From a virus (Duplodnaviria; Heunggongvirae; Uroviricota; Caudoviricetes): a stretch of DNA of 64,000 bases. Shown here one piece after another: positions 30,001 to 33,000 of the stretch. The first letter of the stretch is position 1. Every line of letters begins with the position of its first letter. Location: IMG/VR virus record IMGVR_UViG_2939521961_000006; one strand, 5' to 3'. Made by a program: the position numbers.

Positions 30001-33000
30001 TCTGTGTACTTGTCGGCATTTCATTTTTAGTCATGCTGGTTGCCATTTTCTTTTCCACCGCCTGGCGAGTCCTGACGTTATCGGGACTGGTGGGGTGAAA
30101 GAGAGATGAACCGTGTTCTGTGTGTGGTGATTATTGTCCTGGCGGTTGGCTGTGGTGCGCTGTGGCTGGCAACAAACCATTACCGTGACAACGCGCTCAC
30201 CTACAAAGCGCAGCGCGATAAAAAAGCCAGAGAGCTGGAACAGGCGAATGCCACCATTACTGACATGCAGGTGCGCCAGCGTGATGTTGCTGCGCTCGAT
30301 GCAAAATACTCGAGGGAGTTAGCCGATGCGAGAGCTGAAAATGAAACTCTGCGTGCTGATGTTGCCGCTGGTCGTAAGCGCCTGCGGATCAACGCCACCT
30401 GCTCCGGTACCGTGCGTGAAGCCACCGGCACCTCCGGCGTGGATAATGCAACCGGCCCCCGACTGGCAGACACCGCTGAACGGGATTATTTCATCCTCAG
30501 AGAACGGTTGATGACCATGCAGAAGCAGCTGGAAGGGGCACAGGACTATATCCGCACTCAGTGCCTGAACTAAGTTTTGCTGATGCGCCGTATCGTCGCC
30601 GTATTCCTGCATTAACAGAGACCGCAGCCCGACAGGGAGACTCCTCTGCGAGAGTGTGCGGGGATAATCAAAAACGATACACACCGGGGTTTACCGCGTA
30701 AACGGAGCGCGGCGTTCTCCCCTCATGGTCGCCCGTCCGGTGCGATGGTGGAAGAAACTGGAATCTGTTCAATAAAAAAACTGCCGTGTTGGAGTCACAG
30801 CAGTAATGTACTGATTGGGTAGAAGATTATTATTGTTATGCTTTATTTTTATTCTATATGGCTGATTATTTCAATTCGGAATTAATACAGCTAATGTCTG
30901 TGAGTTTTTATAAATTCAGCAATATAAAGAAATAGTTATATGAACAGCCATCGCAGAGCATACTGTGTATCATTCTTTTTTATAGTCAACTGACGGGCAT
31001 ATTTTATGTCTGCTGCCAGCTCCCGGCGGCAAGATTCAATGACCCACGCAGAAAAATTTTCTGAACCTTTCTGGTCAAGAGCGATGTTAATTTGTTCAAT
31101 CATCTGGTTTGGAAATCGGATGTTGCGGGTTGTTGTTCTGCGGGTCCGGTTTTTCGATGACATTTTCTTTCCTCTGGTGACAAGTTATATGGCGAGGATT
31201 TTACATGGCTGTGCTTCGTACGTTACCGGGCAGAATCAAAACTCTGAACACCCGGCGGGTGAATGTCCTGAAGGGTGAACAGCGTCGGGTCAGTGGTAGT
31301 GCCCGGGTTTCCCTCAAGCGCCGTATCTGGCTCAGGGATGCCGGGCAGTGCTGTCTCTGTGGTCGTGTGGTTGACCTCTGTGACAGTGAACTCGATCACC
31401 GAATTGCACTTCAGTTCGGTGGTGGTAATGAGGAGACGAATCTCTGGACGCTCTGTACCGAATGCCATCGCCAGAAGTCAGTCAGTGAAACGGCGAGTGG
31501 TATGCCGGACCCGACGCTGCCGGAGGTGTCCGGAGGTCATGGCAGGGCAGACGATATCATCGGACTGTGACCCGCCCCGGGGGGGGATCATCCGGCGAAA
31601 AAAACGATCGCCCCGGACACCGCCCCCCGTCTCATGCAGAGAAAAAATTCCTGTTTCAGGCCAGTTAACATGTTAACTGGCTGCCCGGGCATTTTTTCGG
31701 TTTTTATCTTTATTATTCAGTTTGTTGTGCGAAAAAAATGTTAACTGGCTTTTTCAGCAAATGTTAACCAGGCAGCAGTTAACATTTGCGGCATGAGACG
31801 CCGGGAAAAATGGGCTGAACCATACCCGGCTGAGTGCGTTATGGACCCGGGAGGAGGCTGTGCTGACAACGCAAAAACGAAAATTTGCGCTGGCGCTCAT
31901 GTCCGGGAAAAACAAAACAGCGTCAGCCATTGCCGCCGGTTATTCGGCGAAGACCGCCAGGGTTAAAGGCTCGCAGCTGGCAAAAGATCCGGAGGTGCTC
32001 GCGTTTATAGCCCGTAAACAGTGCGAAACGGTGGAGGTGGATGAGGTTCCTGTTTACCGGCAGAAAAAATCAGAGCAGGAGGATAAACCCCGTCGCCGTG
32101 AGGTGGCTGCAATACCACAGCCGGACGAAAACAATCCGGAGATGCCACCGCCCGCGGTGATGTCTCATGGTATTGAATATATGGAGGATGGTCTTCCCGA
32201 TCCGGTGAAAGCTATGGGGCAGATCCTGGTGGAAAACCTCAGCATTGATCCGAAACTGGCACTGGATGCGGCCTGGCGACTGGCGCAGTTCACACACCAT
32301 AAAAAAGGCGATGCCGGTAAAAAATCGGCAAAAGGTGATGCCGCGAAAAAAGCGGCTAACCGTTTTGCGGTACCACCACCACCACGACTGGTGGTGAATA
32401 ACGATAATGAGGGCAACGGATGATACCTGTATGGAGCACGGCCTGCCCGGACTGGGCAGAGCGCCTGAAAAAGGGGCTGTCGATTATTCCGGCTCCGATT
32501 TATCCGGACCAGGCCGCACATGCCCTGGCGATTTTTAAACAACTGCGGATTGTGGATGCACCGGGTAGCCCGACGTTCGGGGAGTCCTGTGCACCGTGGG
32601 TGTTTGACCTGGTGGCGGCTCTGTTTGGCTCCTACGATGCGCAGACCGGTGTCCGCCATATCAAGGAAGTGTTCATTCTGATACCCAAAAAAAACAGCAA
32701 GTCCACACTGGCCGCCGGGATCATGATGACGGCGCTGTTACTGAACTGGCGGCAGGCGGCGGGTTACACGATTCTGGCCCCGACTGTGGAGGTGGCAGCC
32801 AACGCCTTCAATCCTGCCAGGGATATGGTACGACGGGACGATGATCTGGATGACCTCTGTCAGGTGCAGACACATATCCGGACCATCACCCACCGGGTGA
32901 CGGACACCACCCTGAAGGTGGTGGCAGCCGATCCGAATACGGTGTCCGGTATCAAGTCCGTGGGGACGCTGATTGATGAGTTGTGGCTGTTTGGCAAGCA

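Follow-up and report, generated by a model that had tools for sequence, protein, structure and literature searches.

The spacer between the HNH endonuclease gene and the small terminase gene (terS) of a Pankowvirus-type Stx1a (Shiga toxin 1a) prophage appears to contain the site at which packaging of the phage DNA begins. The sequence analysed is a 64,000-nt stretch of viral DNA (IMG/VR record IMGVR_UViG_2939521961_000006), called the window below. According to our analyses, positions 31575-31789 of the window form a cos (cohesive-end) packaging site in which a cosB-like array of small-terminase recognition sites lies beside the cutting site, cosN, and we give this reading a probability of about 0.6. 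That the region is a cos site is very likely, and the cut probably falls at GGACAC/CGCCCCCCGT/CTCAT with a predicted overhang at 31621-31630; the GTTAAC dyads are somewhat favoured, with less assurance, as candidate small-terminase sites. Positions relative to the cut are numbered with +1 at 31631, the first base after the predicted overhang, and the G-run on the left then ends at -45. The elements of the site are the following.

31575-31586: CCCC followed by a run of eight G (CCCCGGGGGGGG), the conserved left-hand cos element, with the G-run at 31579-31586
31615-31620: GGACAC, conserved left flank of the predicted nick
31621-31630, plus strand: predicted cosN overhang CGCCCCCCGT, a 10-nt 3' cohesive end, from alignment to mapped ends
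31631-31651, plus strand: conserved right flank CTCATGCAGAGAAAAAATTCC, with an A6 tract at 31642-31647 (+12 to +17)
31660-31681: dyad 1, the 22-bp perfect palindrome GCCAGTTAACATGTTAACTGGC, with GTTAAC at +34 and +42
31692-31737: spacer rich in A/T (70-85% AT), containing T- and A-tracts and separating dyad 1 from the lone half-site
31738-31749 (+108 to +119), plus strand: lone half-site ATGTTAACTGGC, an exact copy of the dyad-1 half-site
31757-31789: dyad 2, GCAAATGTTAAC / GTTAACATTTGC, with GTTAAC at +133 and +148
31761-31772, plus strand: repeat copy ATGTTAACCAGG
31774-31785, minus strand: repeat copy ATGTTAACTGCT

The position of the cut is drawn from phages whose genome ends have been mapped or are apparent from their records. 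Acinetobacter phage fEg-Aba01 is reported to have HK97-type 10-nt 3' ends, 5'-CGCCCCCCAT-3', which were identified with PhageTerm and confirmed on EcoRI end fragments that were heated and annealed by slow cooling (PMC7354433), and its record carries a 3' cohesive end annotation. When joined, these ends read GGACAC-CGCCCCCCAT-CGCACGCACAAAAAAAATTCC, to be compared with GGACAC-CGCCCCCCGT-CTCATGCAGAGAAAAAATTCC in the window. The HK97 record ends with ...GGGGGGGGGATCAAATC...ATGAC-CGCCGCCAAA and restarts with GTTTGAATTT, its G-run ending 42 nt before the record end, and this break falls in the same aligned column. The record of Burkholderia phage Bcep176 carries the 10-nt CGCACGTTCC at both ends, again in that column, where the record of the Pseudomonas phage vB_Pae_CF53a is also broken. 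Since the mapped or recorded ends of the relatives align to one column, we infer that the cohesive end of the window phage is CGCCCCCCGT. An earlier note on this DNA had proposed a packaging origin between the HNH and terminase genes, which agrees with our alignments: the spacer can be aligned base by base to the regions around the genome ends of HK97, fEg-Aba01 and Bcep176, and comparison with the cos regions of relatives, a check suggested in the same note, maps the ends of these three phages to window 31621-31630. The GC-rich tract described there next to the repeats is also present, starting at 31575 and not at 31574. The predicted cut is not within this CCCCGGGGGGGG tract; the aligned ends fall about 35-45 bp downstream, between the tract and the palindrome.

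Two further features of the sequence around the cut were recorded. GATC (Dam) sites occur at 31586-31589 and 31606-31609, between the G-run and the predicted cut, and the second, located within CGATCGCC, is kept in many, though not all, Enterobacterales relatives. In addition, two IMG/VR contigs, L066 and L025, begin at the palindrome (31660 of the window) and at the next motif (31733), respectively. Both come from isolate assemblies and their starts are most likely assembly breaks at (inverted) repeats, so that they were not taken as physical DNA ends and not used as evidence.

To the right of the predicted cut, the spacer is marked by repeats of one motif. Among the perfect palindromes of the window, GCCAGTTAACATGTTAACTGGC is the longest, followed by ones of 14 bp, and by chance a palindrome of 22 bp is expected about 0.015 times per window (64,000 x 4^-11). 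The 20-bp palindrome CCAGTTAACATGTTAACTGG at 31661-31680, as first described, is present and turns out to be longer by one more base per side. All three additional copies that had been noticed at about 31736, 31760 and 31777 exist, but the third is inverted. Copies 4 and 5 make up dyad 2, of which the 12-nt arms (31757-31768 and 31778-31789) are 100% complementary and separated by a 9-nt spacer. Altogether, the predicted cut has five ATGTTAAC sites (+34, +42, +110, +133 and +148) on its terS side, four of them paired in two dyads and one standing alone. ATGTTAAC is found seven times in the window, compared with 1.7 expected, a number reached in none of 100 shuffles, and five of the seven are inside the 122 bp of 31664-31785; for GTTAAC, 5 of the 21 copies lie inside 31664-31783. 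The A/T-rich spacer at 31692-31737 is possibly bendable DNA.

The palindrome could, on its own, be given another role. Dyad 1 might be an intrinsic terminator or insulator stem 3' of the HNH gene, which blocks non-antiterminated transcription into the terminase and head genes, with the other GTTAAC copies being incidental. For 31640-31720, RNA folding gave -24.6 kcal/mol (z = -4.2) with a composite hairpin (31641-31699) made of a 10-bp GC-flanked stem and an outer A6/U6 stem, followed by UUUUUUCGGUUUUUAUC, and a consensus terminator scan gave a weak terminator-like site at 31685-31700. The distance from the strong inner stem to the U-run is 10 nt, and what the scan flags is a weak 5-bp stem only. 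However, a terminator leaves dyad 2 and the lone half-site unexplained, since neither has a U-tract, the U-run is shorter (T5) in most Escherichia coli relatives, and in relatives from other genera the +34/+42 pair is present without a hairpin-plus-U-run, overlapping the terS start codon. We therefore regard this explanation as unlikely, although a terminator role and packaging recognition may be compatible. An Rfam search found no family, its sole match being a chance-level miRNA (19 bits vs a gathering score of 70). Apart from this, the A-tract block GAAAAAATTCC is mirrored by GGCATTTTTTC across dyad 1, which gives a dyad of about 59 bp (window 31641-31699) centred at 31670/31671.

The cos region was then compared among 24 lineages that have the same SF6-like small terminase, with positions counted from the predicted cut; between the window and fEg-Aba01, this protein is 51% identical in residues 2-50. 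In 23 lineages the end of the G-run falls at -44 to -47, and in the remaining one (L101) the run is masked by N. GGACAC is identical in half of them (12/24), including fEg-Aba01, and occurs in the others as variants, e.g. CGAAAC, CGACAC and CTAGAC, while the overhang sequence itself varies. The right flank is kept as CTCAYGCRCAGAAAAAATTCC from Enterobacterales through Acinetobacter and Burkholderia, and has a T-tract instead in vB_Pae_CF53a. Beyond this flank, 21 lineages have a GT(T/A)AA(C/A/T)-type motif (sometimes ATTAAC) at +33 to +36, and 21 have one at +41 to +48; both sites are occupied in 18 lineages and at least one in all 24. The palindrome of the window is this motif pair, at +34 and +42. 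GTTAAC has a density of 6.25 per kb within the cos segments, compared with 0.31 per kb in flanking sequence.

In most relatives, the motif pair reaches into the start of the small terminase gene. Twenty loci of other Enterobacterales and one Acinetobacter metagenome-assembled genome show the G-run, followed after about 35 nt by GGACACCGCNCCCCCTCTCACGCACAGAAAAAATTCC and after about 12 nt more by GT(A/T)AACATGTTAAC. In Salmonella phage FSL SP-016 the spacer measures only 106 bp; it is homologous to window 31575-31677 and closes with GTAAACATGTTAACAGCG, in which terS starts at the ATG. The second motif coincides with the start of terS (ATGTTAAC, read as ATG TTA AC) in 14 of the 24 lineages. Where terS starts with ATGCTGACA, ATGCTTACA, ATGCTAACA or the GTGCTGACA of the window, the spacer is longer and GTTAAC or ATTAAC copies are found upstream. 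High-GC phages of Burkholderia and Pseudomonas keep TGTTAA-N5-TTAACA around the start codon, TTAAC being kept there through a TTA leucine codon that is rare in those genomes. Because the motif goes with the TerS family and keeps its distance to the cut, the small terminase is taken as its most likely binder.

The same conservation bears on the possibility that the palindromes are operators of another dimeric protein, be it a phage regulator like the product of the neighbouring DUF3950 gene or a host factor like IHF or Fis, which would assist or regulate packaging or late gene expression. A perfect palindrome of 18-22 bp is typical of the operators of helix-turn-helix or ribbon-helix-helix dimers, and the host factor IHF is used by lambda cosB; in the window, the HNH gene is preceded, 40 bp upstream, by a divergently oriented DUF3950 gene on the other strand. 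Nevertheless, the motif follows the TerS family through Gamma- and Betaproteobacteria at a fixed cut distance, which would not be expected from a lineage-specific accessory gene, and DUF3950 genes are presumably present in lambda-type prophages with unrelated cos sites (ylcI of DLP12 and ynfO of Qin). The IHF consensus WATCAANNNNTTR has no match with one mismatch or less in 31560-31900, which leaves unsupported the option of host-factor binding raised in the earlier note. A promoter scan gave no plus-strand promoter, and its sole match, on the minus strand, is made of the motif itself. An operator for another protein thus seems improbable. LexA and TrpR operators were rejected by eye, as their half-sites (CTGT...ACAG and CTAG) are absent.

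The number and arrangement of the motif copies differ between lineages, as listed here.

Pantoea-type loci (L101, L113-L116): two GTTAAC, with GTAAAC too in L101, L113 and L114
Proteus locus (L099): one motif copy
L117-L119: one ATTAAC right of the cut, at +36, and five GTTAA(C/T/A) to its left
fEg-Aba01: three GTTAAA plus ATTAAC
Window: five motif copies

The extended five-site array is peculiar to the E. coli lineage. In L117-L119, the left copies are at about -107 to -42: one is found between the G-run and the cut, and the other four lie further left, beyond the G-run. The SP-016-type loci have a GTAAAC at -34. Both cases indicate that the motif is not limited to the terS side.

These layouts also bear on whether the repeats have a function. 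They could be functionless leftovers of the ancestral terS start (GTAAACATGTTAACAG) that was duplicated several times as about 190 bp joined the E. coli-lineage spacer; ATGTTAAC, which makes up the right half of dyad 1, has its exact counterpart, in the alignment, in the terS start codon region of the SP-016-type phages, whose spacer is about 190 bp shorter than that of the window. Against such an origin, the Pantoea-type loci, Proteus, L117-L119 and fEg-Aba01, as independent lineages, have multi-copy layouts of their own, resembling binding-site turnover under selection, and no convincing leftover terS-coding similarity could be seen by eye downstream of each copy. Moreover, 59 distinct E. 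coli sequences vary in the flanking bases but not in the cores. Leftovers without function are therefore a very unlikely explanation.

Polymorphism in the 59 E. coli sequences refines the limits of the elements. Position 31661 is polymorphic (C in 22, G in 36), so that the invariant core of dyad 1 is the 18-bp CAGTTAACATGTTAACTG at 31662-31679. The predicted overhang has three alleles among the E. coli relatives, CGCCCCCCGT-CTCAT, CGCGCCCCCT-CTCAC and CGCCCCCCCT-CTCAC, and co-resident prophages with differing overhangs could not anneal with each other by their ends. Meanwhile, E. coli prophages that are nearly identical in other respects (L003-L082) differ in the length of the G-run (6 to 11 G), which may be due to homopolymer slippage, or to sequencing or assembly error.

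The packaging proteins are of mixed affiliation. TerS matches Pfam Terminase_2 (E 1.3e-8, residues 2-57), and in a search of PDB with a profile of 12 TerS homologues the top five matches were small terminases (E about 1e-3); the SPP1/SF6 G1P structures among the PDB matches are of the isolated DNA-binding domain. By these profile matches, the N-terminus of TerS is an SF6/SPP1-like helix-turn-helix DNA-binding domain. The earlier note drew on HK97-like phages; TerS, however, is SF6/SPP1-like (Terminase_2) and unrelated to HK97 gp1. In the case of terL, BLASTP with HK97 gp2 gave 23% identity over 490 aa (E 2e-11), and by this similarity it is an HK97-type large terminase. The match of the HNH protein to HK97 gp74 has an E value of only 0.078, and we do not claim it as an orthologue; NCBIfam naming of the three packaging proteins was uninformative. 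The site shows a corresponding modularity: terL and the left cos half (G-run and overhang) resemble HK97, and terS and the right cos half do not. A separate observation was made in the terS of a Proteus mirabilis prophage (L099, 2501-3091), in which about 40 aa of degenerate (K/E)VN-type repeats are inserted after the DNA-binding domain, ahead of the C-terminal part.

In the cos reading that we prefer, the large terminase, aided by the adjacent HNH endonuclease, would cut GGACAC/CGCCCCCCGT/CTCAT and leave a 10-nt 3' overhang as in HK97. The palindrome and the three further ATGTTAAC sites would be read by the helix-turn-helix domains of an oligomer of the SF6-like TerS, with dyad 1 as the candidate primary site. 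Anchored on the terS side of the cut, the oligomer would set the large terminase over cosN, and the five-site array together with the A/T-rich spacer could let the DNA wrap or bend round the TerS ring.

Several points weigh against this reading. A literature search on Pankowvirus, BP-4795, 2851, phi330 and overhang sequences yielded no mapped virion ends, so the cut position is deduced from homology; the phi330 record starts at terL. The GTTAAC motifs are most likely bound by TerS, but this is deduced from the comparisons described above. The 20-fold enrichment of GTTAAC does not represent independent events, because the compared loci are homologous, and conservation of the second motif is confounded in 14 of the 24 lineages, where it is also coding (Met-Leu-Thr). 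The polymorphism test on the motif cores is marginal: none of the 16 variable columns in 31631-31859 is inside the five ATGTTAAC cores, with 2.7 expected (P = 0.049). Finally, the A-tract block at +1 to +21 might be the true, or an additional, small-terminase site, with GTTAAC serving another protein; in HK97 the small-terminase site is a 15-bp segment at +15 to +29 that includes an A-tract (PMC11331095).

Compared with known systems, the site combines features of several. As in HK97, whose cos site depends on the HNH protein gp74, it lies between the HNH gene and terS, the large terminase is homologous, the G-run is 42-47 nt before the cut and the overhangs are related (CGCCGCCAAA in HK97, CGCCCCCCGT in the window). 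In addition, the small-terminase site is on the terS side of the cut with an A/T-tract involved, which is reported for HK97 (PMC11331095) and predicted for the window. In contrast to HK97, where the unrelated gp1 is used, the small terminase is of the Terminase_2 type (SF6-like, helix-turn-helix); the sequence right of the cut can not be aligned, and instead of a single 15-bp site the window has a dyad and four to five repeats of the motif over about 125 bp. With fEg-Aba01 the window shares the TerS family, the block of GGACAC, overhang and A-tract, the first GTTAA at exactly +34 and several copies between the cut and terS. However, the copies in fEg-Aba01 are three GTTAAA in direct repeat, 11-13 bp from one another, and an ATTAAC within terS; a perfect palindrome is absent, and the cut-to-terS spacer measures 72 nt compared with 229 nt in the window.

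Lambda cosB has the layout R3-I1-R2-R1 for gpNu1, with IHF in addition. The likeness to the window lies in several (in the window, candidate) small-terminase sites of mixed orientation, which occupy 100-150 bp on the side of cosN that faces the terminase genes, and in an A/T-rich, bendable (in the window, possibly bendable) segment that separates the first site from the second. The lambda overhang, however, is 5' and 12 nt long, unlike the predicted 3' overhang of 10 nt, and the window is without an IHF consensus site, has an HNH partner and encodes a TerS that is not of the gpNu1-type winged-helix. In the pac systems of SPP1 and SF6, repeated short boxes are recognised by an oligomeric G1P ring. 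Their small terminase has a DNA-binding domain of the same family as that of the window, whereas packaging is headful (pac), without defined cohesive ends or an HNH partner, and the box sequences are unrelated.

Generally, the comparisons allow a wider proposal, for which we see about an even chance. The GT(T/A)AA(C/A/T) pair at about +34/+42 would be the recognition element of a widespread class of cos phages, which the Stx lineage would have moved off the gene and multiplied to a lambda-cosB-like array of five sites. The class may be defined by an HK97-type large terminase, an HNH partner and an SF6-like small terminase, and may occur in phages of Enterobacterales, Acinetobacter, Pseudomonas and Burkholderia. 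The SF6/SPP1 small-terminase family is better known from pac phages; if the proposal is true, a pac-type small terminase has been recruited to cos recognition, with a specificity determinant legible from the sequence. The general view of phage packaging is unchanged.

Long-tailed phages of the Pankowvirus type, with Stx1, Stx2a or Stx2c, disseminate Shiga-toxin genes, and our literature search found no published packaging-site map for Pankowvirus-type Stx phages and no description of the GTTAAC motif. With cosN at 31621-31630 and GTTAAC as the proposed small-terminase motif, a directly testable map is available. It can be used to orient and annotate prophages, to judge which prophages of Shiga toxin-producing E. 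coli remain packageable, and to spot cos-carrying satellites or cross-packaging among co-resident prophages. Meanwhile, the phage offers a simple system for studying sequence-specific recognition by an SF6-type small terminase in a cos phage.

The window has a 100% match to Stx1a-converting phages, and the long-tailed Stx phages 2851, BP-4795, 1717, YYZ-2008 and phi330 (genus Pankowvirus) are 95-98% identical to it; it is a Pankowvirus-type Stx1a prophage. The genes around the site run from lysis genes through HNH, spacer, terS and terL to a protease-capsid fusion gene, as follows.

28579-29112: lysozyme gene
29383-29952: antirepressor-like gene
30106-30573: Rz gene
30936-31163, minus strand: DUF3950 gene, 75 aa, YlcI/YnfO-like (Pfam E 3e-17)
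31205-31570, plus strand: HNH endonuclease gene, 121 aa (Pfam HNH PF01844, E 2.1e-6)
31571-31859: HNH-terS spacer, 289 bp
31860-32423, plus strand: terS, with a GTG start (Pfam Terminase_2)
32420-34081, plus strand: terL (Pfam TerL_ATPase and TerL_nuclease)
34062-36083: protease-capsid fusion gene

The order HNH, spacer, terS is common to SP-016, HK97, fEg-Aba01, Bcep176 and the window. The DUF3950 family is a neighbour of cos in other lambdoid prophages. In the PPompW prophages (L124, PPompW_132418, LC567822.1, 1146-2604; about window 31582), ISEc20, an insertion sequence of the IS110 family, adjoins the cos G-run. The whole stretch from the Q-tRNA region to cos is gone from these prophages, including the lysis and HNH genes, and cos, terS and terL are retained. 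A tRNA-to-G-run junction like that of the PPompW prophages was also found in L079.

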